In this document: one piece after another, positions 5,810 to 64,000 of the stretch
Numbering within the stretch: position 1 is the first letter of the stretch
Layout: each line of letters opens with the position of its first letter
Assembly: GCA_964016885.1 (NCBI GenBank)
Contig: OZ024743.1
Coordinates: 185,380,001-185,444,000, forward strand
Length of the DNA stretch: 64,000 nt
Reading direction: 5' to 3'
Source: Eledone cirrhosa
Lineage: Eukaryota
Program-made: the position numbers and the translations under genes
Notes under the pieces: generated by a model
Database searches by the model: none
Seen by the model: the letters and a program-made list of their open reading frames with translations, nothing else
What the model was told of the DNA's origin: nothing

Positions 5810-6264
5810 AATAATTTGGTATAGGTGGTGTTGGAAGGAGTAGGTATATTTTTGATAGAATAATCCAATTCATAAACGTCCATGGTGTATGTTGGTTAAT
5901 TTCCTGAAACTGTAGAGTGCTCAACTTATCGGGCTGGAAGGTGCCAATCATATATGTAATATAGAATATGCTTCGATCATTCCCGGTTGGAGCTGTATAA
6001 ATGAAGTATTTCCGTCAGAAAGGTACAGGAAAAAAGAGTGCTCTATATGATTGGCACCTTCCAGCCCGATAAGTTGAGCACTCTACAGTTTCAGGAAATT
6101 AACCAACATACACCATGGACGTTTATGAATTGGATTATTCTATCAAAAATATACCTACTCCTTCCAACACCACCTATACCAAATTATACATAACTAATAA
6201 GCTCTGGTCCTACATAGAGCACTCTTTTTTCTTGTATCTTTCCGACGGAAATACTTCATTTATA
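5810..6264. repeat. Interleaved double inverted repeat in a TA-rich tract (Penelope-like non-coding fragment)
   Basis: 5811-5953 is the reverse complement of 6044-6187. 5996-6046 is the near reverse complement of 6214-6264. Followed by (TA)n. Confidence 0.8.
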
Positions 6265-7539: not shown

Positions 7540-7620
7540 AATTACCTTGTCTGACGAACGAATGAGGACGTTTCTTGTATTCGTCTTATTCGGGAAACCT
7601 CTGGTAATGAGGTAATTATA
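7540..7620 (+). ncRNA. Hammerhead ribozyme-like motif (type I, helix I degenerate) in a Penelope-like 3' fragment (~7415-7720)
   Basis: CTGACGA (7551), long stem II (cgaatgaggacg/cgtcttattcg), GAAA, stem III cctc/gagg, GUA triplet. The fragment ends in (TA)n. Confidence 0.55.
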
Positions 7621-7767: not shown

Positions 7768-7807
7768 ATCGCTTCTCGGCCTTTTAGCTAAGATCAAAGT
7801 GTAGTAT
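7768..7807 (+). pseudogene. RNU2: U2 snRNA 5' fragment (first ~40 nt), retro-pseudogene
   Basis: ATCGCTTCTCGGCCTTTTAGCTAAGATCAAAGTGTAGTAT matches the U2 5' end, including the branch-point recognition sequence GTAGTA. Flanked by TA repeats. Confidence 0.9.
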
Positions 7808-7809
7808 AT

Positions 7810-8022
7810 ATATAATAACAATAAATACAAACACCAAAATCTAGAGGGGTCTCGATAAAGGTTGTATATATAAACCCGTAGAGCAAATATTTTTTATTAA
7901 CACAAATTAAAAGTTAAAGCAATGAATTTCTGCTTTTACCCTAAGCAGGATCAACTGAAACAGTTTCAGATTATCCCACTTAGGGTGAAAGCAGAAATTC
8001 ATTGCTTTAACTTTTAATCTGT
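7810..8022. mobile_element. Penelope-like fold-back fragment with variant hammerhead (family shared with 16978-17372 and 43900-44090)
   Basis: Inverted arms at ~7900-7960 and 7964-8022. 7810-7895 is the diverged reverse complement of 17282-17370. Confidence 0.7.
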
Positions 8023-14652: not shown

Positions 14653-16977
14653 TATTTTTTTAAAATTTGGCTTGCATCCATTTGATACCTACCCACATGA
14701 AACTACTCTAAGTTCTATGATATAAAATTGCCCATTTTAAAGTTTTCATACTTATATTAAAACGTTCCAACATCATTTCATGCAAGGAATGTTTAAATAT
14801 TGCTCCAAACATCAACTTACTAATAAAAAATTAATTATTTCATGTTGAAATATCATGTTGTATAGTCCATCCCATATTGTAGAGGCAGCAACACCAATAA
14901 CTAAGATTTTTTTCTCGCTACTAAGTTGATACCACAGTATTTTCAATCGCAATACAGTTAAGCCCTCATTCACTCCACTCCTGATTTAGCTCAGAATATT
15001 GCTTGATCTAACATAATTAAGATAAATGAACACTGTAGACATAAAATACTAATACGATAAGACCATTTAGATGCAACTCTGTAGTTTCCAATGACAGTCA
15101 TCTCAACAAAAGAATAAAATAGCAATGTACTCTAAAGTTTAACTCTGCAGATAAGGTTTACATTGGTGTAATTGTGAACATTCTATCTGGGCACCAGCAT
15201 GAAAAATGTCACTGCACTATCTGCTTACATATGGCAACTTAACCTTTTAGCATTTAAACCGGCTGTATCCGGCCAGAATCCTTTCACCTCTTTCTGTTCA
15301 AACCGGCTGTAACCGGCCACTCATACTGGTGTTAAGGTATTGTTCTCAAAATAACTAATATCAAAATCTCATAGATTCAATATTATGTGAAGTAAAGCCT
15401 TTACCGTGAAAATACAATAGTAAATATAGAGTAATGTAAATGTTAAAGGGTTAAAGAGAGCCAGCAAAAATATCAACTCAGTGGAAGTGCTTAGCAAGAG
15501 CTGTACTGTATATAGGTAACAGAATGCCATGTGATCTCTATATAAGAAGCCATCCAAATTCGTTTTATTTATAGCAGCCTATTAGATAGAAACTCAGAGA
15601 AAGTAACATACAGTTACAAAATATACATTACATCTCTAAATTATAGACCTGTGTTGGATGCTAATGGATAGAGCCCAGATCTAATTAGTACAGCAGTTTG
15701 GTATCAAAATAGACACCAGCCCACAACACACCTGGAACCCCATTTGGGTGGATGAATATACATCATTACCCATCTACTTCAAGAACTAATTATGAGTAAA
15801 AGGGAATATATATATATACATAATCATCGTCATCTGTGAAGGTGTGTGGGTTAGAGTGTTGGCTGCATAATTGTGAGGCTGTAAGTGATTCTTGGACCGG
15901 GCTCTACTTTACTCAGCTGTAGAAATGAGTTGTGACTGGTGCCAAACTGTATCAGCCTTTGCCTTTCCTTTGGACACACAGTGGCATGGAGAGGGGAGAC
16001 TTGTATGCATGGGCGACTGCTGGTCTTCCACAAAACATGTTGTCCAGTCTTCTGCCTCAGAGAGAAACTTCCTAGGTGTGAAACCCATGGTGATTTGTGA
16101 CTGAAGGGGGTCTTTACTCCTTTTTTTATCATCATCATCATCACCATTTAACATCTATTTTCCCTGCCTGCATGGGTCAGACGGGCTGTTATGTTATGAA
16201 GACTGACAAGTCAGTGACCACGTCTTAGTTATATGCTCCGTTTTGGGGGGTTTTTTTTTACGGCTGGATGCTCTTCCTAATGGCAAACACATATAGTGGA
16301 CTGGGTACTTTTTTCATGGACCCAAGTACTACCACCTTATAGTGTAGAGTGATTGATTTTTGTTGTGACCTTTAAAAAAATATTTCTTTATAGATTCATT
16401 AGTTACAAATCAGTATTTCTATATTTTTGCAAAATCTTTTAAATATTAAACATAGCTAAATCATTTATTTATTAATTAACACTAAATCATTAATTAATTA
16501 ATTACCTAATGAGTAATGTGAGTGTGCATGTGTATTTTACAAAATCATTCATAAAAAGAAATAATACAGAACTAGGCCTAAGCCCAATTGGAAATCATTA
16601 ATAGGTAAAATATACTTAATAATTTGGAAGTGTGAGAATCTCAAATGCAGAAAATAACTGTATTAAGTCAATCACTATGGACAATAGCTGAGAAAATCAA
16701 GTAAAATACCCTTAGAGATAGAAAAAATTGGTTAGATGTACTCAACCAAAGTCTATTGAAAGTTTACAAAACGATTTGCCAGGAAACACCCACCAAGTTG
16801 TTTAATGGATTCAGTTGGTAAACCATATACTTCCATCAAGCTTGCAACTCTTCTTTGCTCCAGTGATAATCTGTCACTCATGGGGTGTGTCTATCTGAAA
16901 AAGAAAAATAATCCATTAGTGTTAACATAATAATGATAACATGGTTTTGACTAACCCTGTATATATATATATATATA

Positions 16978-17372
16978 TTTATTAAAATAACAGATTAAAG
17001 TTTAAGCAAAGAATTGCTGCTTTCACCCTTAACGGGATCTTCTGAAACTAAAAAGTCAATCTGTGAACGCAGAAGTAAATATTTCAAAACGATGCAACCG
17101 AAGGAAGACAGGAAGACGATACTTTGGTTCGTGGAAACGTTCCCTGGAAAAGAACGGAACAAAGCGAAGATAATACGTCATAATTTGGTGCTGTGAAAAC
17201 AATTACACGCAAAGACAAAGAAGATCCCGTTAAGGGTGAAAGCAGCGATTCTTTGCTTAAACTTTAATCTGTTATTTTAATAAATATTTGCTCTATGGTT
17301 CTTATATATCTGATATATATTTATCCTTATCAAGCCCTCTTTGGATTTTAGTCTTCAAATTTATTATTATTA
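16978..17372. mobile_element. Penelope-like inverted non-coding element in (TA)n
   Basis: 16978-17042 is the reverse complement of 17221-17287. The left arm carries a full hammerhead fold on the - strand. Confidence 0.75.
16990..17064 (-). ncRNA. Type I hammerhead ribozyme fold with non-canonical CAGAAGA core
   Basis: acagattga-cttttt-agttt CAGAAGA t-ccc-gttaa-ggg-t GAAA gcag..ttgc UU aaact-ttaatctgt. All three helices pair, including distal helix I. Confidence 0.65.
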
Positions 17373-17504
17373 CTATTCGCCGAGGTTGAGTTTGCCTTTC
17401 ATCCTTACGGGGGTCGATAAAATAAAGTACCAGTAATGCACTGGGTTATTGCTGGCCTTGTGCCTAAAGTAGAAACAATCATTATTATTATTATTATATA
17501 TATA

Positions 17505-18020
17505 TAATCAGGAACTGATTATACCGAGCGGTTGCCGGTCCAGCAAAAATTGAAAATTAGAATGGTGTTCTGAAATAGCGATATATATATATATAGTGTA
17601 TCTTGCAATACACTGTATGCTTAATTAAGTGCATTTTGAAGACCTTACGCTATTGTTTTAAATGCAAAATACACTATATATACATTCATATATATATATT
17701 GCTATTTCAGAGCACCAATTCTAATTTTCAATTTTTGCTGGACCGGCAACCACTCTGTATAATCAGTTCCTGATTATTACTGGAATTCTATAAGAATCCA
17801 ACATTCATAATTTTCAGCAAACAGGAGGAGTGGTGAGCTTTGATAAGTACCAACAAGTACGAAACAGAGCTCCGTCAGCTTATCTCCCCTTGTTTGCTGA
17901 AAATTTAAGTAAGTGACATTGTCGCTACTTTAAAACACTAGCGTAAGGTCTTCAAAATGCTTTTAATTAAGCATACAGTGTATTGCAAAATACACTATAT
18001 ATACATTCATATATATATAT
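17505..18020. mobile_element. Permuted/inverted non-coding Penelope-like (retrozyme-like) element in (TA)n
   Basis: 17506-17580 is the reverse complement of 17700-17775, and 17593-17652 of 17939-17998. gcaaaatacactatatatacattcata is directly repeated (17664, 17985). Confidence 0.75.
17809..17905 (+). ncRNA. Minimal type I hammerhead ribozyme, U3-A8 covariant core, palindromic loop III
   Basis: ggtgagct TTGATAA gtac-caacaa-gtac GAAAC agagctcc GTC agcttatc. Helix I is extended by aattttcagcaaacaggaggag / ctccccttgtttgctgaaaatt. Confidence 0.8.
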
Positions 18021-18079
18021 CATCATCATCATTATCATCATCTATATATATATATATATATATCATATATATATATATA

Positions 18080-18652
18080 ATCTATGTAAAAGGTAAACAG
18101 AAATAACAACACAATCGGTACAGTATATGGAAGGAATATATTAGGTTAACGCTTGAAATAGCAGAAAGAGGGTCTTAACGTTTCGGATGCTAGTCTTTCA
18201 TCAGAAGAAAGACTGAGAAATAAAATGGATTGAAGGGATGGGCGGGGTGGAATTGGAAAAAAATGTCTTTAGATAAAAATAACAATATTAAGTCAAAAGT
18301 AGCAGATATATATGTATATATATATAGAGAGAGAGAAAGAACCATATAATCCAGTGAAGACACAGTATATTGTACATATACTAAATACATATTACAGAGA
18401 AGAACATGTATTCAAGATGGAATCAAAAGAGACCTTATGGCGCCATTTCTGTAAAATGGCGCCATAAACTGTAAACTGTGATTTAAAATTGATCTATGTA
18501 AATGGATATCGATCACAAAGTATCGATTAAGATTAAACCATCTTGAATACATGTTCTTCTCTGTAATATTTATTTAGTATATGTACAATACACTGTGTCT
18601 TCTCTGGATATATGGTTCTTTCTCTCTCTATATATATATACATATATCTGCT

Positions 18653-18697: not shown

Positions 18698-18702
<5 letters not shown>

Positions 18703-18900
18703 AAAAGAGTCAGGACCGCAACCGCTGAGCTTTGGCTGTTTCGACAGCTAGATCCGAACTCGGATCTAGCTGTCGAAATGGCCGGGGCTCAGCCGTCGGG
18801 GTCCTGACTCTTTTCCTATTACCCACACTACTACCCTAAGTATCGAGTACTCTGGTGCATTATGGTCCACCTGGTTTCTTACCACACTTTCTTTGTTATA
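18698..18900. repeat. ~120-bp near-perfect palindrome plus tail between (TA)n tracts
   Basis: ataggaaaagagtcaggacc...tttcgacagctagatccga ac tcggatctagctgtcgaaa...ggtcctgactcttttcctat. Confidence 0.85.
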
Positions 18901-20164: not shown

Positions 20165-22690
20165 ACATATTCTTGAGAGGGTTGTTGGGGTAGAGTCCTC
20201 AAACACTCCTTTCAGTGAGTCTTGTCAGAAGTAACCATCTCCAACTGATTCAACTGGATCCCCAAGTGAGACCAGCCAAGTTCATGGATGTTATCCAACC
20301 ATCTTGCTCAGAGTCTGCCCCTGGGTCTTCTGCCTGTTGTTTTCGCCTCTAAAATCTGTCCAGCTATTCTTTCCTGAGACATTCTAACTACATGCCCATT
20401 GTATTAGAGTTGTGATCTCTCAATTCGGAGAAGTAGCGGCTTTACCAGGAGTGACTTTCTGATCTCTAAGCTATGCACTCTATCGAGTAACATTACTCCA
20501 AAGATCCTTCAGAGGAACCCTGTTTTGGCCACTTGTATTTGCATCATTACCCAAAATTCATGACCATAGGTGAGAGGTTGGCACAAATATCAAATTGAAG
20601 ATAGCAAGTTTGGCTTTTATACGCATTACTGCACCAGCTCCAGTAATTCTTGTTCATGAATGATGGAAAGCAGGAGGCTGAATTATTCAGTCTCCTGCTT
20701 TCCATCACTTATGAACATGGCCTCCGAGATACTTGAACTTCTTTACCTGCTTCAGTGCAACACCGTACACATGTAGAGTGTACTACACAGGCTTCCATGT
20801 GATGATGAGTGTCTCAGCTTTTGTAGTACTGATTTTCATTCCTGCCATGCTGCACTCGGCATCAAACCTATCAAGTGTAAGTTGGAGATCATCTTCTGTC
20901 GAGTTAAGTAACAGTATGTCGTCTGCAAACTCCAGCCGACTGATTTTGCATCTGCCAATGGTGATACCACTTCCATCCCGCATGTCAATCCTGTTCATGA
21001 AAATAATGAACAGGAGAGGTGACAGTGCGCACCCATAGCAGAGTCTGACTCCCACATTGAATGGTTTCGATTTTTCACTATTTATCTGAACACAGATACT
21101 CGAGCATTCGTATAGAGACATCAGAGCAACAAGAAACTGACCATTGACCCCATACTCCTGCAGAACCTTCCACAGCAGTGATATGCCTTTTTGAGGTCTA
21201 TAAAGCAAGAATGTACCTCTTTACAATATTCCTACAATTTCTCAAAGAACTGCCGCAGTGTGAATATTTTGTTGGCTGGGTTGCATCTGGAGCAAAAGCC
21301 ACACTGTTCATCAGCTAGCTTGGCCTTAATCTCCGTGCATCTCTTTGACACTTAGCATAGACTTTACTGGGGAGGCTTAACAAAGAGATCCCTCTATAAT
21401 TGAAGCAATCTCTCTTGTCTCTCTTTTGAAAATTGGGATTATCACTCCTGTTTGCCATTGTTTAGGTGCCTTTCCAGAGATCCAGGCCACCCGGCACACA
21501 TGAGTCAGCCAGAGAATACCTTCTCTATTTAAGACTTTCAACATCTCAGGCTGAATTTTATCTTTCCTGGCAGTCTTGCCACATTTGAGCTCTTTAACTG
21601 CTCTTGTGATCTCAGCCCCTCAGAGATTAGTCACTGCTCCCAGATGCACCTCGTGTATATCAGAAGATGCTGTTGTGATCAGGTTTAGAAGATCAGTAAA
21701 ATATTCTCTCCACCTCACGAGGATGCATCTCCCTGAAGAGAGGAGAACCCCTGATGTGTTCCTGATAGCATGTGTGGAGGATGATTTCTTTTTATGAAGA
21801 TGCTGGATGGTCTGCCAAAACACTTTATTTGCTAATCTGAAGTCAGATTCCAGCTTAACCCCAAATTCCTCCCATGTCTTAACTTTGGACACGTTTACTG
21901 TCTCTGCTGCAATTCTTTGTGCCTGCTTGTACCACAAGTGCAAGAAGGAGGACTTATTTGCAAGTCAAGTTTGTAGGCCTCCTTTGTTCAGATAGCATCT
22001 TTGACTTCTTGATTGAACCAATGGATCCGCCTGCCATCCGGCGCCACACCAAACCTCTTTCGATCACAGCATTTAACAGCTGAAGTAGAAACTGCTGAAC
22101 AATCTCCATTCTGTCTCAACATCTGCAGTGTGCTCAGGGAGTTTTCTGAATTTGGATGCAATAGTATCTGCAATACTTCGTCCTGATTTCCTTATCCACC
22201 AACACTTCCCACATTATCCTATAGGTCGGCCTGAACCTGCCAGTTTTGTGGGTTTCTTTGGCTTTAGGTAGTTTCATGTTGTAGATAACTAGATGGTGAT
22301 CAGTTGACAGCTCTGCCCCTCTCTTAACATGAACATCCAGCACAGAATCAAAGAGATCAGAGACAATAACAAAATCAATTATTGATCTCTGTCCCTGATA
22401 CCCCTTATGCCATGTATATTTATGGGTGTCTCTCTGCTGGAAGGTGTTCATAATAGAGAGCCTATTGCTAGAACAGAAGTCTAATAAGGCCTCTCCATTC
22501 ATATTTAGACCAGGGTAGCCTTTCCTTCCAATCACTCTTTTCCATGTTGGGTGGTCAGTGCCAACATGTGCATTGAAGTCTATCATTAGGATACATGACT
22601 CAGTCTTAACTACATCTAACGCTGCAAGGACTTCATCAAGGAAGTATTTGTATTCAGACTCCTTGTTTGGTGCATAAACTTAACGCCAGG
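20165..22690 (-). pseudogene. Degenerate RTE LINE ORF (APE endonuclease + RT)
   Basis: DFNAHVG, IDFVIVS and STDHHLV (APE); RWREYFTDLLN; GCALSPLLF and LEFADD (RT). Multiple stops and frameshifts. Confidence 0.88.
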
Positions 22691-43587: not shown

Positions 43588-44791
43588 TCTATATATCTAA
43601 AACAGAGAATGTCTGTCTGTCTGTCTCCCTAAAACTCGAGAACCACCCAACCTATTTTTTTCAAACTCTACACATGTAATACTTATGGTCCTGTGAGTGT
43701 TTTGAGCAAAAAATATTTCAAATTTTCAATGCCCTAGGGACCGCATTAGGCGCCGGTTAGCTATCCCTCTGTCTTTCTTAGTCTGTCCTTTTAGATAGAT
43801 ACGTAGATATAACGTCGCGCCCTTATAATATCTGTCTGCATGTCTGGCTGTCGGCATTACGACATTATGACAAATATTGTTCTCATTGCTGACATATTAT
43901 CTTCGCTATTTTCCGTTCATTGCCAGGGAACGTCTTTACAAACCAAAGTATCATCTTCCTGTTTTCTTTCGGTTGCAACGTTTTTCGAAATATTTACTTC
44001 TGCATTTCAGAAGATCCCATTAAGGGTGAAAGCAGCGATTCTTTGCTTAAACTGTTATTAATCTGTTATTAATCTGTTATTTTAATATATATTTTAGAAG
44101 AGTCATATTTTTCACACGGGCAACTATATGTTGGCTACTCAAGAATGGGAAGCAAGACAAATCTCTTTGCATATGCCTGGCACGGAAGAACAAGGAACAT
44201 TGTGTACAAGGAGGTGTTTTAGGTAAACGAGGCAGAAGGGGATATACACGATTGGCTGAAGAAGGACGAGACTGTGTTAGTAGTACGACCAATGGCTGCT
44301 ATCACACCAACAGCAGCAAAAACAACAACAAAAAAGAGAGGGAATGCAATTACATGCTTTTGAAAAATCGTAATGGAAAATTATTTGCCTATTCACCCAA
44401 GGCGACTTCACTTTTTATTAGGGCTTTTGCATCAATTGGTGAACATACGACGAAACATTGAAAGGAGTAAGACAACGCCACTCTCCACCACTGCAATCCC
44501 ACATGCTGTAACTATTGCTTTCATTGTACCATAGCACAACAAATACATGTTCAGTTTGTTGAATGCCTTTTTACTTAACCCTATCGTCTTGGCTTTCGTA
44601 GGTTGAACATTTTACTCTCAGGCACCCAATTAAGTTAAACCCATGGTAATCTAATTTGTTTTATAAACACAAAACGTCGACACCATCCCGAGGTCGAGGT
44701 ATTCCGTACTTCTCTGTACTGTTTCAGAAAGGAGGGATAAACATGCCAATTTATGTTTAGAATCCCAAGCAACACTGGGCCATTCTGCTAG
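43588..44791 (+). mobile_element. Non-autonomous Helitron containing a Penelope-like hammerhead fragment
   Basis: A|TCTATATATCTAAAA start, 5' part similar to the 31618 element, end cccaagcaacactggg..CTAG|T. 43900-44090 matches the reverse complement of 16980-17170. Confidence 0.75.
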
Positions 44792-53821: not shown

Positions 53822-54255
53822 ACGAAACAACATGAGCCAACAATTGCTCCCTTACATGCTCTCTCAACCTACGAGAAATAATTACTAATTTTGCCTCAAA
53901 TTACACTCTACCATCTTAGAAGAGAACACACTAAAGTTGTTCTATGTTCTTTGCATGGTGATTTGTAGTTTCACTTTCATTTTCACTTTTGTAGCTTGTT
54001 AGGTTTTTTGATTGGCATGCTTATTGAAAAAATATTTTGAATGTTTATAGTAGTGCAACCTACTCGATGATGAGACAAATTTCATGTTTCCCATCTCTCT
54101 AGCTAGTATCAAAGTGAAAGTGAAGCACTAAACTCAGAGATCGTTCCCCTTGCACATGGGAAAAATGGGATGGCCATGACAGGAATTATTTTGGTCATAT
54201 GCTTGCTCAATCAAGGCTGATCTGGAGCTAATCAGCAACAACAAGAATGACTTAC

Positions 54256-57200
54256 AATGTTGGTGAGTGAGATTCTAGTATGGCATAAACGTTAACAGTG
54301 TTGGTGAGTGAGATTCTAGTATGGCATAAACGTTAACAGTGTTGGTGAGTCAGATTCTAGTATGGCATAAACGTTAACAGTGTTGGTGAGTCAGATTCTA
54401 GCATGGCATAAACGTTAACAGTGTTGTTGAGTGAGATTCTAGCATGGCATAAACGTTAACAGTGTTGTTGAGTGAGATTCTAGTATGGCATAAACGTTAA
54501 CAGTGTTGGTGAGTGAGATTCTAGTATGGCATAAACGTTAACAGTGTTGGTGAGTGAGATTCTAGTATGGCATAAACGTTAACAGTGTTGGTGAGTGAGA
54601 TTCTAGTATGGCATAAACGTTAACAGTGTTGGTGAGTGAGATTCTAGCATGGCATAAACGTTAACAGTGTTGGTGAGTCAGATTCTAGTATGGCATAAAC
54701 GTTAACAGTGTTGGTGAGTGAGATTCTAGTATGGCATAAACGTTAACAGTGTTGGTGAGTGAGATTCTAGTATGGCATAAACGTTAACAGTGTTGTTGAG
54801 TGAGATTCTAGTATGGCATAAACGTTAACAGTGTTGGTGAGTCAGATTCTAGCATGGCATAAACGTTAACAGTGTTGTTGAGTGAGATTCTAGTATGGCA
54901 TAAACGTTAACAGTGTTGGTGAGTGAGATTCTAGCATGGCATAAACGTTAACAGTGTTGGTGAGTGAGATTCTAGCATGACATAAACGTTAACAGTGTTG
55001 GTGAGTGAGATTCTAGTATGGCATAAACGTTAACAGTGTTGGTGAGTGAGATTCTAGTATGGCATAAACGTTAACAGTGTTGGTGAGTCAGATTGTAGCA
55101 TGGCATAAACGTTAACAGTGTTGGTGAGTGAGATTCTAGTATGGCATAAACGTTAACAGTGTTGGTGAGTGAGATTCTAGCATGGCATAAACGTTAACAA
55201 TGTTGTTGAGTCAGATTCTAGTATGGCATAAACGTTAACTGTGTTGGTGAGTGAGATTCTAGTATGGCATAAACGTCAACAGTGTTGGTGAGTCAGATTC
55301 TAGTATGGCATAAACGTTAACAATGTTGTTGAGTCAGATTCTAGTATGGCATAAACGTTAACTGTGTTGGTGAGTGAGATTCAAGTATGGCATAAACGTC
55401 AACAGTGTTGGTGAATCAGATTCTAGTATGGCATAAACGTTAACAGTGTTGGTGAGTCAGATTGTAGCATGGCATAAACGTTAACAGTGTTGGTGAGTGA
55501 GATTCTAGCATGACATAAACGTTAACAGTGTTGGTGAGTGAGATTCTAGTATGGCATAAACGTTAACAGTGTTGGTGAGTCAGATTCTAGCATGGCATAA
55601 ACGTTAACAGTGTTGGTGAGTAAGATTCTAGTATGGCATAAACGTTACCAGTGTTGGTGAGTGAGAATCTAGTATGGCATAAACGTTAACAGTGTTGTTG
55701 AGTGAGATTCTAGCATGGCATACACGTTAACAGTGTTGTTGAGTGACATTCTGGTATGGCATACACGTTAACAGTGTTGTTGAGTGAGATTCTAGTATGG
55801 CATAAACGTTAACAGTGTTGTTGAGTGAGATTCTAGCATGGCATACACGTTAACAGTGTTCGTGAGTGAGATTCTAGTATGGCATAAACGTTAACAGTGT
55901 TGTTGAGTGAGATTCTAGTATGGCATACACGTTAACAGTGTTCGTGAGTGAGATTCTAGTATGGCATAAACGTTAACAGTGTTGGTGAGTGAGATTCTAG
56001 TATGGCATACACGTTAACAGTGTTCGTGAGTGAGATTCTAGTATGGCATAAACGTTAACAGTGTTGGTGAGTGAGATTCTAGTATGGCATAAACGTTAAC
56101 AGTGTTCGTGAGTGAGATTCTAGTATGGCATAAACGTTAACAGTGTTGTTGAGTGAGATTCTAGCATGGCATACACGTTAACAGTGTTGGTGAGTGAGAT
56201 TCTAGCATGGCATAAACGTTAACAGTGTTGTTGAGTGAGATTCTAGTATGGAATAAACGTTAACAGTGTTGATGAGTGAGATTCTAGCATGGCATAAACG
56301 TTAACAGTGTTGGTGAGTGAGATTCTAGTATGGCATAAACGTTAACAGAGTTGGTGAGCGAGATTCTAGTATGGCATAAACGTTAACAGTGTTGTTGAGT
56401 GAGATTCTAGCATGGCATAAACGTTAACAGTGTTGTTGAGTGAGATCCTAGTATGGCATAAACGTTAACAGTGTTGTTGAGTGAGATTCTAGTATGGCAT
56501 AAACGTTAACAGTGTTGGTGAGTGAGATTCTAGTATGGCATAAACGTTAACAGTGTTGTTGAGTGAGATTCTAGTATGGCATAAACGTTAACAGTGTTGG
56601 TGAGTGAGATTCTAGTATGGCATAAACGTTAACAGTGTTGGTGAGTGAGATTCTAGTATGGCATACACATTAACAGTGTTGTTGATTGAGATTCTAGTAT
56701 GGCATACACATTAACAGTGTTGTTGAGTGAGATTCTAGTATGGCATAAACGTTAACAGTGTTGGTGAGTGAGATTCTAGCATGGCATAAACGTTAACAGT
56801 GTTGGTGAGTGAGATTCTAGTATGGCATAAACATTAACAGAGTTGGTGAGTGAGATTCTAGTATGGCATAAACGTTAACAGTGTTGTTGAGTGAGATTCT
56901 AGCATGGCATAAACGTTAACAGTGTTGTTGAGTGAGATCCTAGTATGGCATAAACGTTAACAGTGTTGTTGAGTGAGATTCTAGTATGGCATAAACGTTA
57001 ACAGTGTTGGTGAATGAGATTCTAGCATGGCATAAACGTTAACAGTGTTGGTGAGTGAGATTCTAGTATCGCATAAACGTTAACAGTGTTGGTGAGTAAG
57101 ATTCTAGTATGGCATAAACGTTAACAGTGTTGGTGAGTCAGATTCTAGCATGGCATAAACGTTAACAGTGTTGGTGAGTAAGATTCTAGTATGGCATAAA

Positions 57201-60200
57201 CGTTACCAGTGTTGGTGAGTGAGAATCTAGTATGGCATAAACGTTAACAGTGTTGTTGAGTGAGATTCTAGCATGGCATACACGTTAACAGTGTTGTTGA
57301 GTGAGATTCTAGTATGGCATAAACGTTAACAGTGTTGTTGAGTGAGATTCTAGCATGGCATACACGTTAACAGTGTTCGTGAGTGAGATTCTAGTATGGC
57401 ATAAACGTTAACAGTGTTGTTGAGTGAGATTCTAGTATGGCATAAACGTTAACAGTGTTGGTGAGTGAGATTCTAGTATCGCATAAACGTTAACAGTGTT
57501 GGTGAGTAAGATTCTAGTATGGCATAAACGTTAACAGTGTTGGTGAGTCAGATTCTAGCATGGCATAAACGTTAACAGTGTTGGTGAGTAAGATTCTAGT
57601 ATGGCATAAACGTTACCAGTGTTGGTGAGTGAGAATCTAGTATGGCATAAACGTTAACAGTGTTGTTGAGTGAGATTCTAGCATGGCATACACGTTAACA
57701 GTGTTGTTGAGTGACATTCTGGTATGGCATACACGTTAACAGTGTTGTTGAGTGAGATTCTAGTATGGCATAAACGTTAACAGTGTTGTTGAGTGAGATT
57801 CTAGCATGGCATACACGTTAACAGTGTTCGTGAGTGAGATTCTAGTATGGCATAAACGTTAACAGTGTTGTTGAGTGAGATTCTAGTATGGCATACACGT
57901 TAACAGTGTTCGTGAGTGAGATTCTAGTATGGCATAAACGTTAACAGTTTTGGTGAGTGAGATTCTAGTATGGCATACACGTTAACAGTGTTCGTGAGTG
58001 AGATTCTAGTATGGTATAAACGTTAACAGTGTTGGTGAGTGAGATTCTAGTATGGCATAAACGTTAACAGTGTTCGTGAGTGAGATTCTAGTATGGCATA
58101 AACGTTAACAGTGTTGTTGAGTGAGATTCTAGCATGGCATACACGTTAACAGTGTTGGTGAGTGAGATTCTAGCATGGCATAAACGTTAACAGTGTTGTT
58201 GAGTGAGATTCTAGTATGGAATAAACGTTAACAGTGTTGATGAGTGAGATTCTAGCATGGCATAAACGTTAACAGTGTTGGTGAGTGAGATTCTAGTATG
58301 GCATAAACGTTAACAGAGTTGGTGAGCGAGATTCTAGTATGGCATAAACGTTAACAGTGTTGTTGAGTGAGATTCTAGCATGGCATAAACGTTAACAGTG
58401 TTGTTGAGTGAGATCCTAGTATGGCATAAACGTTAACAGTGTTGTTGAGTGAGATTCTAGTATGGCATAAACGTTAACAGTGTTGGTGAGTGAGATTCTA
58501 GTATGGCATAAACGTTAACAGTGTTGGTGAGTGAGATTCTAGTATGGCATACACATTAACAGTGTTGTTGATTGAGATTCTAGTATGGCATACACATTAA
58601 CAGTGTTGTTGAGTGAGATTCTAGTATGGCATAAACGTTAACAGTGTTGGTGAGTGAGATTCTAGCATGGCATAAACGTTAACAGTGTTGGTGAGTGAGA
58701 TTCTAGTATGGCATAAACATTAACAGAGTTGGTGAGTGAGATTCTAGTATGGCATAAACGTTAACAGTGTTGTTGAGTGAGATTCTAGCATGGCATAAAC
58801 GTTAACAGTGTTGTTGAGTGAGATCCTAGTATGGCATAAACGTTAACAGTGTTGTTGAGTGAGATTCTAGTATGGCATAAACGTTAACAGTGTTCGTGAG
58901 TGAGATTCTAGTATGGCATAAACGTTAACAGTGTTGTTGAGTGAGATTCTAGTATGGCATACACGTTAACAGTGTTCGTGAGTGAGATTCTAGTATGGCA
59001 TAAACGTTAACAGTGTTGGTGAGTGAGATTCTAGTATGGCATACACGTTAACAGTGTTCGTGAGTGAGATTCTAGTATGGCATAAACGTTAACAGTGTTG
59101 GTGAGTGAGATTCTAGTATGGCATAAACGTTAACAGTGTTGATGAGTGAGATTCTAGCATGGCATAAACGTTAACAGTGTTGGTGAGTGAGATTCTAGTA
59201 TGGCATAAACGTTAACAGAGTTGGTGAGCGAGATTCTAGTATGGCATAAACGTTAACAGTGTTGTTGAGTGAGATTCTAGCATGGCATAAACGTTAACAG
59301 TGTTGTTGAGTGAGATCCTAGTATGGCATAAACGTTAACAGTGTTGTTGAGTGAGATTCTAGTATGGCATAAACGTTAACAGTGTTGGTGAGTGAGATTC
59401 TAGTATGGCATAAACGTTAACAGTGTTGTTGAGTGAGATTCTAGTATGGCATAAACGTTAACAGTGTTGGTGAGTGAGATTCTAGTATGGCATAAACGTT
59501 AACAGTGTTGGTGAGTGAGATTCTAGTATGGCATACACATTAACAGTGTTGTTGATTGAGATTCTAGTATGGCATACACATTAACAGTGTTGTTGAGTGA
59601 GATTCTAGTATGGCATAAACGTTAACAGTGTTGGTGAGTGAGATTCTAGCATGGCATAAACGTTAACAGTGTTGGTGAGTGAGATTCTAGTATGGCATAA
59701 ACATTAACAGAGTTGGTGAGTGAGATTCTAGTATGGCATAAACGTTAACAGTGTTGTTGAGTGAGATTCTAGCATGGCATAAACGTTAACAGTGTTGTTG
59801 AGTGAGATCCTAGTATGGCATAAACGTTAACAGTGTTGTTGAGTGAGATTCTAGTATGGCATAAACGTTAACAGTGTTGGTGAATGAGATTCTAGCATGG
59901 CATAAACGTTAACAGTGTTGGTGAGTGAGATTCTAGTATCGCATAAACGTTAACAGTGTTGGTGAGTAAGATTCTAGTATGGCATAAACGTTAACAGTGT
60001 TGGTGAGTCAGATTCTAGCATGGCATAAACGTTAACAGTGTTGGTGAGTAAGATTCTAGTATGGCATAAACGTTACCAGTGTTGGTGAGTGAGAATCTAG
60101 TATGGCATAAACGTTAACAGTGTTGTTGAGTGAGATTCTAGCATGGCATACACGTTAACAGTGTTGTTGAGTGACATTCTGGTATGGCATACACGTTAAC

Positions 60201-63200
60201 AGTGTTGTTGAGTGAGATTCTAGTATGGCATAAACGTTAACAGTGTTGTTGAGTGAGATTCTAGCATGGCATACACGTTAACAGTGTTCGTGAGTGAGAT
60301 TCTAGTATGGCATAAACGTTAACAGTGTTGTTGAGTGAGATTCTAGTATGGCATAAACGTTAACAGTGTTGGTGAGTGAGATTCTAGTATCGCATAAACG
60401 TTAACAGTGTTGGTGAGTCAGATTCTAGCATGGCATAAACGTTAACAGTGTTGGTGAGTAAGATTCTAGTATGGCATAAACGTTACCAGTGTTGGTGAGT
60501 GAGAATCTAGTATGGCATAAACGTTAACAGTGTTGTTGAGTGAGATTCTAGCATGGCATACACGTTAACAGTGTTGTTGAGTGACATTCTGGTATGGCAT
60601 ACACGTTAACAGTGTTGTTGAGTGAGATTCTAGTATGGCATAAACGTTAACAGTGTTGTTGAGTGAGATTCTAGCATGGCATACACGTTAACAGTGTTCG
60701 TGAGTGAGATTCTAGTATGGCATAAACGTTAACAGTGTTGGTGAGTGAGATTCTAGTATGGCATACACGTTAACAGTGTTCGTGAGTGAGATTCTAGTAT
60801 GGTATAAACGTTAACAGTGTTGGTGAGTGAGATTCTAGTATGGCATAAACGTTAACAGTGTTCGTGAGTGAGATTCTAGTATGGCATAAACGTTAACAGT
60901 GTTGTTGAGTGAGATTCTAGCATGGCATACACGTTAAGAGTGTTGGTGAGTGAGATTCTAGCATGGCATAAACGTTAACAGTGTTGTTGAGTGAGATTCT
61001 AGTATGGAATAAACGTTAACAGTGTTGATGAGTGAGATTCTAGCATGGCATAAACGTTAACAGTGTTGGTGAGTGAGATTCTAGTATGGCATAAACGTTA
61101 ACAGAGTTGGTGAGCGAGATTCTAGTATGGCATAAACGTTAACAGTGTTGTTGAGTGAGATTCTAGCATGGCATAAACGTTAACAGTGTTGTTGAGTGAG
61201 ATCCTAGTATGGCGTAAACGTTAACAGTGTTGTTGAGTGAGATTCTAGTATGGCATAAACGTTAACAGTGTTGGTGAGTGAGATTCTAGTATGGCATAAA
61301 CGTTAACAGTGTTGTTGAGTGAGATTCTAGTATGGCATAAACGTTAACAGTGTTGGTGAGTGAGATTCTAGTATGGCATAAACGTTAACAGTGTTGGTGA
61401 GTGAGATTCTAGTATGGCATACACATTAACAGTGTTGTTGATTGAGATTCTAGTATGGCATAAACGTTAACAGTGTTGGTGAGTGAGATTCTAGTATGGC
61501 ATAAACGTTAACAGTGTTGGTGAGTGAGATTCTAGCATGGCATAAACGTTAACAGTGTTGGTGAGTGAGATTCTAGTATGGCATAAACATTAACAGAGTT
61601 GGTGAGTGAGATTCTAGTATGGCATAAACGTTAACAGTGTTGTTGAGTGAGATTCTAGCATGGCATAAACGTTAACAGTGTTGTTGAGTGAGATCCTAGT
61701 ATGGCATAAACGTTAACAGTGTTGTTGAGTGAGATTCTAGTATGGCATAAACGTTAACAGTGTTGGTGAGTGAGATTCTATCATGGCATAAACGTTAACA
61801 GTGTTGGTGAGTGAGATTCTAGTATCGCATAAACGTTAACAGTGTTGGTGAGTAAGATTCTAGTATGGCATAAACGTTAACAGTGTTGGTGAGTGAGATT
61901 CTAGTATGGCATAAACGTTAACAGTGTTGGTGAGTGAGATTCTAGTATGGCATAAACGTTAACAGTGTTGGTGAGTGAGATTCTAGTATGGCATAAACGT
62001 TAACAGTGTTGGTGAGTCAGATTCTAGTATGGCATAAACGTTAACAGTGTTGGTGAGTGAGATTCTAGTATGGCATAAACGTTAACAATGTTGGTGAGTC
62101 AGATTCTAGCATGGCATAAACGTTAACCGTTTTGTTGAGTCAGATTCTAGTATGGCATAAACGTTAACAGTGTTGGTGAGTGAGATTCTAGTATGGCATA
62201 AACGTTAACAGTGTTGTTGAGTGAGATTCTAGTATGGCATAAACGTTAACAGTGTTGGTGAGTGAGATTCTAGTATGGCATAAACGTTAACAGTGTTGGT
62301 GAGTGAGATTCTAGTATGGCATAAACGTTAACAGTGTTGGTGAGTCAGATTCTAGTATGGCATAAACGTTAACAGTGTTGAGTGAGATTCTAGTATGGCA
62401 TAAACGTTAACAGTGTTGGTGAGTCAGATTCTAGTATGGCATAAACGTTAACAGTGTTGGTGAGTCAGATTCTAGTATGGCATAAACGTTAACAGTGTTG
62501 GTGAGTCAGATTCTAGCATGGCATAAACGTTAACAGTGTTGTTGAGTGAGATTCTAGCATGGCATAAACGTTAACAGTGTTGTTGAGTGAGATTCTAGTA
62601 TGGCATAAACGTTAACAGTGTTGGTGAGTGAGATTCTAGTATGGCATAAACGTTAACAGTTTTAGTGAGTGAGATTCTAGTATGGCATAAACGTTAACAG
62701 TGTTGGTGAGTGAGATTCTAGTATGGCATAAACGTTAACAGTGTTGGTGAGTGAGATTCTAGCATGGCATAAACGTTAACAGTGTTGGTGAGTCAGATTC
62801 TAGTATGGCATAAACGTTAACAGTGTTGGTGAGTGAGATTCTAGTATGACATAAACGTTAACAGTGTTGGTGAGTCAGACTCTAGCATGGCATAAACGTT
62901 AACAGTGTTGTTGAGTGAGATTCTAGTATGGCATAAACGTTAAAGGTGTTGGTGAGTCAGATTCTAGCATGGCATAAACGTTAACAGTGTTGTTGAGTGA
63001 GATTCTAGTATGGCATAAACGTTAACAGTGTTGGTGAGTGAGATTCTAGCATGGCATAAACGTTAACACTGTTGGTGAGTGAGATTCTAGTATGGAATAA
63101 ACGTTAACAGTGTTGGTGAGTGAGATTCTAGTATGGCATAAACGTTAACAGTGTTGGTGAGTGAGATTCTAGCATGGCATAAACGTTAACAGTTTTGTTG

Positions 63201-64000
63201 AGTCAGATTCTAGTATGGCATAAACGTTAACAGTGTTGGTGAGTGAGATTCTAGTATGGCATAAACGTTAACAGTGTTGGTGAGTGAGATTCTAGTATGG
63301 CATAAACGTTAACAGTGTTGGTGAGTCAGATTGTAGCATGGCATAAACGTTAACAGTGTTGGTGAGTGAGATTCTAGCATGACATAAACGTTAACAGTGT
63401 TGGTGAGTGAGATTCTAGAATGGCATAAACGTTAACAGTGTTGGTGAGTAAGATTCTAGTATGGCATAAACGTTACCAGTGTTGGTGAGTGAGATTCTAG
63501 TATGGCATAAACGTTAACAGTGTTGTTGAGTGAGATTCTAGCATGGCATACACGTTAACAGTGTTGTTGAGTGACATTCTGGTATGGCATACACGTTAAC
63601 AGTGTTGTTGAGTGAGATTCTAGTATGGCATAAACGTTAACAGTGTTGTTGAGTGAGATTCTAGCATGGCATACACGTTAACAGTGTTGGTGAGTGAGAT
63701 TCTAGTATGGCATAAACGTTAACAGTGTTGTTGAGTGAGATTCTAGTATAGCATACACGTTAACAGTGTTCGTGAGTGAGATTCTAGTATGGCATAAACG
63801 TTAACAGTGTTGGTGAGTGAGATTCTAGTATGGCATAAACGTTAACAGAGTTGGTGAGCGAGATTCTAGTATGGCATAAACGTTAACAGTGTTGTTGAGT
63901 GAGATTCTAGCATGGCATAAACGTTAACAGTGTTGTTGAGTGAGATCCTAGTATGGCATAAACGTTAACAGTGTTGTTGAGTGAGATTCTAGTATGGCAT
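54256..64000. repeat. 41-bp satellite array (>235 monomers, runs off the window end)
   Basis: Consensus GTGTTGGTGAGTGAGATTCTAGTATGGCATAAACGTTAACA, period 41, mostly 0-3 substitutions per unit. Confidence 0.99.

Follow-up and report, generated by a model that had tools for sequence, protein, structure and literature searches.

A type I hammerhead motif with A at core position 4 in a high-copy Penelope-like element of Eledone cirrhosa

In the genome of Eledone cirrhosa, one Penelope-like element (PLE) family carries in its pLTRs a type I hammerhead motif with A in place of the canonical U at position 4 of the core. As an earlier note on this DNA had claimed, A4 is a feature of the family and not decay. 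The pLTR hammerhead is fixed for this change, and we lean slightly towards a slowed ribozyme rather than a fast one; A4 would likely slow self-cutting, leaving the element RNA whole for copying. U4 is regarded as one of the fixed core bases of hammerheads, and searches based on CUGANGA exclude other states. The occurrence of U4A in more than 20,000 copies of a lineage that retains intact ORFs means either that the core is more tolerant than has been assumed or that PLEs keep the fold for a role other than fast cleavage.

The motif and the base at position 4

The motif lies at 16999-17049 on the minus strand of the window, the 64,000-nt stretch of DNA analysed here, as judged from the sequence, a constrained fold and pair counts. 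Read from 17049 to 16999, the core CAGAAGA, the U.U at the base of stem II and the CUU triplet are as the earlier note described them. Proximal helix I has 5 bp, AGTTT (17049-17045) with AAACT (17003-16999), and leads into the core, with C3 at 17044 and A4 at 17043. Stem II has 3 bp (CCC-GTTAA-GGG, with the U.U at its base, then GAAA), and stem III is GCAG/TTGC, with 4 bp plus A15.1-U16.1 and a 7-nt non-palindromic loop. The CUU triplet precedes the predicted scissile bond, which hammerhead numbering would place after U17, at 17003-17004. Across a U-rich bulge, distal helix I adds 8 bp in which CAGATTGA (17056-17063, minus strand) pairs with TTAATCTG (16991-16998, minus strand); this helix is paired in the minimum free energy (MFE) structure, and its 5′ strand is kept in older subfamilies. 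C3, G5, A6, G8, A9, G12, A13, A14, A15.1-U16.1 and H17 all match the hammerhead consensus, which calls for U4 (PMC3088659) where this motif has A.

Three helices with helix I open, the type I layout, can be drawn, and 96% of cells pair across 21 copies. Every named element of the complete hammerhead previously proposed is present, but the arrangement is not the predicted MFE fold: that of 16988-17066 pairs the core with the U-rich bulge (z = -1.18). The full three-helix fold has an ensemble probability of ~1e-3, which says little, since a canonical sister hammerhead scores about alike (6e-4). Rfam searches gave no hammerhead match in the 64-kb window or in a full-length copy of the element (L088). 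A CUGANGA descriptor would indeed miss the motif, as had been suggested, but the Rfam result is not specific to A4, because the canonical U4 sister hammerhead in L342 was missed too.

We searched the 3.0-Gb genome for exact matches to a pattern left open at position 4, with the reversed pattern as a control. The pattern gave 21,082 matches and the control none; A4 was present in 20,851 (98.9%), and the 231 non-A matches were spread over U, G and C as random decay would give, U accounting for 42 of the first 100 listed (hand count). Older subfamilies, which have different loops, had A4 in 90 of the 100 matches listed from a total of 124 (hand count). One older-subfamily copy, a single locus, has its own endonuclease end, with 64-70% amino acid identity to the young family. 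No position-4 variant at a level of at least 5% was seen in the sequencing runs of one study, possibly of the source material itself.

A canonical U4 subfamily was suggested by 1,371 CTGA matches to a looser pattern, and was rejected on inspection. Forty regions taken from the first 100 matches listed gave 45 rows, comprising 39 inversion junctions, one plain truncation and five copies of another PLE family. In the 39 junctions A4 of the opposite arm, read as its complement, supplies the U, and none of the inspected rows retained native upstream sequence; the family consensus is not CUGA. A4 gives an odd palindrome, TTC-A-GAA, that forms the centre of up to ~1,300 inverted junctions. On one of the two strands such junctions give the canonical CTGAAGA, by which descriptor searches could be misled.

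We compared five young with seven older copies at sites not fixed by the search. Core and stem sites showed no majority changes (0/19; 5% of cells) and the upstream flank 40/104 (51%; Fisher p = 3e-4), a contrast that is inflated because all older copies were found through a pattern inside the motif, and some of them may run into flanking DNA upstream. The downstream flank had 4/26 changes, and N7 plus loops 3/13, with two loop-III differences forced by the search pattern. Between subfamilies, C3, G5, A6, G8, A9, G12-A15.1 and the UH triplet are unchanged; N7 and the loops vary. Helix covariation, the absence of which had been set beforehand as counting against a variant ribozyme, was not found within subfamilies A-C: one of 13 pairs covaried, within the range of shuffled alignments. 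Pairing changes are visible only against other Hydra families, of which family D was compared by eye because MAFFT misaligned it and a metagenome relative.

The element and its copies in the window

The motif sits in the pLTR of a Penelope-like element, as previously proposed, and a linked master element with an RT/GIY-YIG-type ORF of 709 aa was located. At loci with paired motifs, the ORF lies between the two; ten copies, picked for a 713-codon open frame from the 150 matches scored, carry it open. The unit is 3.24-3.30 kb long, and the motif closes each pLTR, ~200 nt ahead of the ATG of the next unit, followed by (TA)n. L088 has a 673-bp direct repeat (98% identity). Other PLE hallmarks accompany the pLTRs: partial tandems, inverted truncated copies, a tail and two 3′ ends.

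The protein has YRDD at 346 and VYK..YIG at 584, and from these motifs the endonuclease is probably of GIY-YIG type. It further contains RWR at 37 in L085 (CWR in L084), DKT at 115, a CxCX5C linker (CNCRNRADC) at 564, CDLC (CxxC) at 662 and CKH (CxH) at 690. Neither DKG nor GxKF/Y is present in the 709 aa and, by eye, the C-terminal endonuclease has no CCHH. These match the traits described for the Hydra clade, namely an RWK-type motif, DKT rather than DKG, no GxKF/Y, a CxCX5C linker, and a C-terminal endonuclease without CCHH and with CxxC and CxH (Craig et al. 2021, PMC8557442). Insertion into (TA)n is a further Hydra-clade trait found here; the unit length and the A4 core are not, since Hydra-clade elements generally stay <3 kb and their hammerhead is canonical. 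The protein gave no match in Pfam or in PDB sequence searches, and its AlphaFold model (pLDDT 83) has telomerase RTs (TERT) as top fold matches. We compared the protein by eye with Hydra-1_Obim and aligned it with its relatives, which number at least 500, those listed having 38-56% identity. On this sequence evidence we assign the master as a young, high-copy, 3.3-kb Hydra-clade Penelope-like retrotransposon with an RT/GIY-YIG-type ORF. A separate 848-codon open frame with a non-LTR-type RT adjoins a Hydra copy at L066:4049-1506 (minus strand).

The window motif belongs to an inverted-repeat pair. One arm (16976-17217, minus strand) is the 5′-truncated 3′ end of a pLTR, 89% identical to that of L088, and ends at the first 3′ terminus, ~27 nt beyond the predicted cut. 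The second, inverted arm (17219-17377, plus strand) is 97% identical to L088; it begins at A4 and runs through the 3′ half of the hammerhead as far as the second 3′ terminus, which lies ~117 nt beyond the predicted cut. A (TA)n tract with no strand assigned lies at the insertion site (16960-16977), as at most copy ends. A candidate GIY-YIG C-terminus near 17360 (minus strand) proved to be antisense of the 5′ UTR of the element.

Two further loci had been put forward as copies of the family with CAG in the core, and by sequence CAG is indeed at 44008 and in both arms of 7900-8022. As family members they are less complete: the copy at 43890-44085 (plus strand; C3 at 44008) is decayed and has lost most of helix I's 5′ strand by deletion, and the other is an older-subfamily palindromic insertion at 7813-8022 (arms 7813-7961, minus strand, and 7962-8022, plus strand), whose cores have decayed at A6 and G8 and kept A4. 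The 5′ 39 nt of a U2 snRNA (Rfam 41.5 bits) lie in a TA tract at 7768-7806 (plus strand) and directly abut the inverted tail of this copy; this fragment is possibly a U2 retro-chimera produced by the RT of the element. Separately, the window holds at 7541-7610 (plus strand) a canonical type I hammerhead with CTGACGA and a long stem II, which has relatives in L054 and L066, and a 41-bp satellite of ~235 copies with strong GC skew at 54090-64000. Further long inverted repeats or palindromes at 5811-6187, 17504-18040, 18349-18609, 18698-18819 and 20648-20720 are probably MITEs or inverted PLE ends.

RNA ends recorded in genomic copies, and readings of A4

An anchor 3′ of the cut site gave 28,229 matches, and we mapped 70 loci from the first 100 listed. 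Seventy-one arms were mapped; one, rearranged, was dropped and one was corrected by eye, leaving 70. Twenty-four of these begin between -9 and +4 of C3, and nine begin at -5 (p = 3e-11 against other sites), seven of the nine after an added G; one breaks at +40 to +42. In the window, this 5′-end hot spot corresponds to the A at 17049 (minus strand). A non-T precedes -5 in 3,411 genome matches, and among the first 100 listed we counted 76 breaks by hand, of which 54 follow G, 15 follow A and seven follow C; a script check covered 30 loci. About 19 of the G cases could owe their G to the inverted arm; the remaining G is still enriched. The site reads TTAGTT or TCAGTT, which we take to resemble the Drosophila initiator. 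By analogy with L1 insertions, in which an extra G marks capped 5′ ends (PMC11702581), -5, the first base of helix I, is likely a capped Pol II transcription start. Of nine copies that reach the ORF and have a hammerhead upstream, none starts at G/-5 (eight have a continuous upstream pLTR and one begins near -2), so the capped start may not be that of the main mRNA. No matching added-G hot spot was seen in ~21 arms of family D.

The 3′ ends of copies fall ~27 or ~117 nt beyond the predicted cut site, so the RNA templates were uncut there. Junctions at the cut site itself were sought among 167 matches; ~24 of 30 inspected were junctions, giving ~135 against 50-84 expected before AAA microhomology, no clear excess.

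These ends bear on the slowed ribozyme that we favour. A transcript capped at -5 would start on the first base of helix I, and fast cleavage would remove its cap 46 nt in; at the 3′ pLTR, fast cleavage would cut off the RT start sites. Given that fast cleavage would both decap the transcript and detach the RT starts, a slow or protein-gated ribozyme would fit the anatomy. Selection would keep the fold and the catalytic G8 and G12, with a weaker position 4 tolerated or favoured, and cleavage after CUU would persist in a slow, late or protein-assisted form, as reported for anole PAc: its hammerhead requires the element protein for cleavage, and insertion in vitro can do without the hammerhead (PMC11167929). 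A natural U4C viroid variant is slower in vitro and sufficient in vivo (PMC3088659). The near-uniformity of A4 (98.9% of matches), together with its presence in subfamilies whose endonuclease is 64-70% identical (one locus), is consistent with a slowed ribozyme. Family D, which is also abundant, keeps U4, so A4 is not required. Also against a slowed ribozyme, the fold of the monomer is weak, helix I is almost unpopulated in an RNA starting at -5 (P ~1e-4), and the non-palindromic stem III makes dimer rescue unlikely. The narrower proposal, that an active retrotransposon lineage has tuned down a still-cleaving U4A hammerhead because helix I opens with the very base at which its own capped RNA begins, is one we hold tentatively and consider rather doubtful.

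A ribozyme that is catalytically dead, its three-way junction kept as an RT-binding or start structure and its DNA as an internal promoter, is the main alternative, possible but unlikely. All copies examined run through the cut site, with the single break at +40 to +42 among 70 arms, and a type III hammerhead scan found low activity for every single mutant of the CUGA turn (PMC9901934). The mutagenesis literature predicts reduced activity of the A4 motif and, by comparison with those mutants, U4A may be near dead. Catalytic mutants of PAc still insert (PMC11167929), and in D. virilis an internal promoter of Penelope lies a short way downstream of the start (PMC2377424). Against a dead motif, C3, G5, A6, G8, A9, G12-A15.1 and UH are unchanged between subfamilies, although drift at more than a single position would be expected once a core is dead; this retention of every other core base makes a dead motif less likely. 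Cut-site junctions, perhaps ~2-fold above background before AAA microhomology, may also point away from it. If cleavage is absent, the family would be a clear case of a ribozyme fold kept after catalysis was lost.

We think it improbable that the variant is fully active, with the longer stem III, distal helix I or a tertiary contact of the U-rich bulge offsetting A4. Stem III is longer than in most Hydra hammerheads and would permit folding as a monomer, the distal helix is kept across subfamilies, and Perreault 2011 proposes that tertiary contacts compensate core changes. However, the RNA from which thousands of copies arose was intact at this site, the predicted fold is weak, and known position-4 changes reduce the rate (PMC3088659, PMC9901934).

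Least probable, and in our view very unlikely, is that A4 has nothing to do with a ribozyme and either creates, after a pyrimidine tract, the 3′ splice acceptor TTTCAG or is a neutral founder change of one master lineage: the bulge and core do read like a branch point, tract and CAG, the element does splice, and an intron in D. virilis ends at helix I (PMC4209133), but A4 has persisted while the flanks diverged by ~40%, which one site can survive by chance, and none of six genome matches joins the two known donors to the core CAG. The intron itself, spliceosomal and with two alternative donors, lies in the 3′ UTR of the element (L084:3044-3777, L031, L049), and the genome contains spliced copies, in which the acceptor used by both donors lies 102 nt upstream of the core.

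Other hammerheads, known and in the same genome

PLE hammerheads and natural core variants are already known (PMC4209133). CUGA is found in every one of the 25 published Hydra families, 14 of which also show the U.U at the base of stem II (PMC8557442, File S2), so only A4 is new. Like Hydra-clade PLE hammerheads such as those of Hydra-1_Obim and Hydra-1_Ajap, the motif is of type I and lies close to the 3′ end of an element that targets (TA)n and has a C-terminal endonuclease, and both have a short stem II; unlike them, it has CAGA instead of CUGA, a longer, non-palindromic stem III, and a unit of ~3.3 kb. Metagenome relatives of the element have CUGA. The minimal PLE hammerheads of Cervera and de la Pena (2014, PMC4209133) are likewise found in pLTRs, with thousands of dispersed truncated copies and inverted pairs, but their helix III is tiny and palindromic and they act as dimers. 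The compensated U3-A8 pair, a core variant in the same paper, differs from A4 in that the latter is a single, uncompensated change. The natural U4C viroid hammerhead (Ambros and Flores 1998, as cited in PMC3088659) resembles the A4 motif in a position-4 change within an otherwise intact core; it is a pyrimidine swap in a viroid variant, whereas A4 is a purine fixed in >20,000 genomic copies. PAc, a Poseidon element of Anolis (Frangieh et al. 2024, PMC11167929), shares two internal RT start sites that give a tail, and an uncut RNA template, with no RNA ends seen at the hammerhead site, but belongs to a different clade, and its hammerhead overlaps the start codon and has been shown to cleave with protein; the available portion of that paper mentions no position-4 change.

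No report of U4A or CAGANGA was found in the literature surveyed, including the portions seen of PMC6155905, PMC11014351, PMC6765202, PMC2377424 and bioRxiv 2026.07.22.740005; an earlier notice is possible, including in picture-only supplements (Perreault Figs S6-S7).

Other states of position 4 occur in the same genome. The Hydra-like sister family D has U4 and the same U.U and stem II layout; its helix I (CCGAG/CTCGG) is wholly different from that of the A4 family yet paired, and its high copy count includes a satellite. Among other short-stem-III hammerheads in 1.1 Mb of loci, under scan settings that leave out the A4 family, 40 of 50 had U4 (one of these rows being a C4 copy read a second time) and 10 of 50 had C4. 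C4 is concentrated in families with a CAATTG-type stem III, and its clustering in several families suggests that position 4 is loose in several elements of this genome. U4, C4 and A4 families in one genome would form a natural allelic series at a core position regarded as nearly invariant. What PLE hammerheads are for is described as an open question (PMC8557442), which three core states, together with the genomic record of where RNA templates start and end, make testable with short transcripts; if the tuned-down reading of A4 is true, the series itself tests that role.

Multicopy C4 (CCGANGA) hammerheads with a CAATTG or CGATTG stem III were seen in L225, L279, L304, L346, L372, L005, L097 and L348. 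Two C4 hammerheads adjoin Hydra-like endonuclease ends, some have stem II inserts of 80-96 nt, and in one hammerhead family U4 copies occur alongside C4 copies. For several other Hydra-like families, no downstream hammerhead was recovered. In L151 a different PLE, with a DKG motif, forms a perfect tandem of 4.19 kb that has an additional 474-codon frame upstream and a hammerhead of the canonical U4 type, and L360 (17.83-17.84 Mb) holds a 56-58 bp tandem satellite whose unit extends from at or near the predicted cut site of family D to its first 3′ end.
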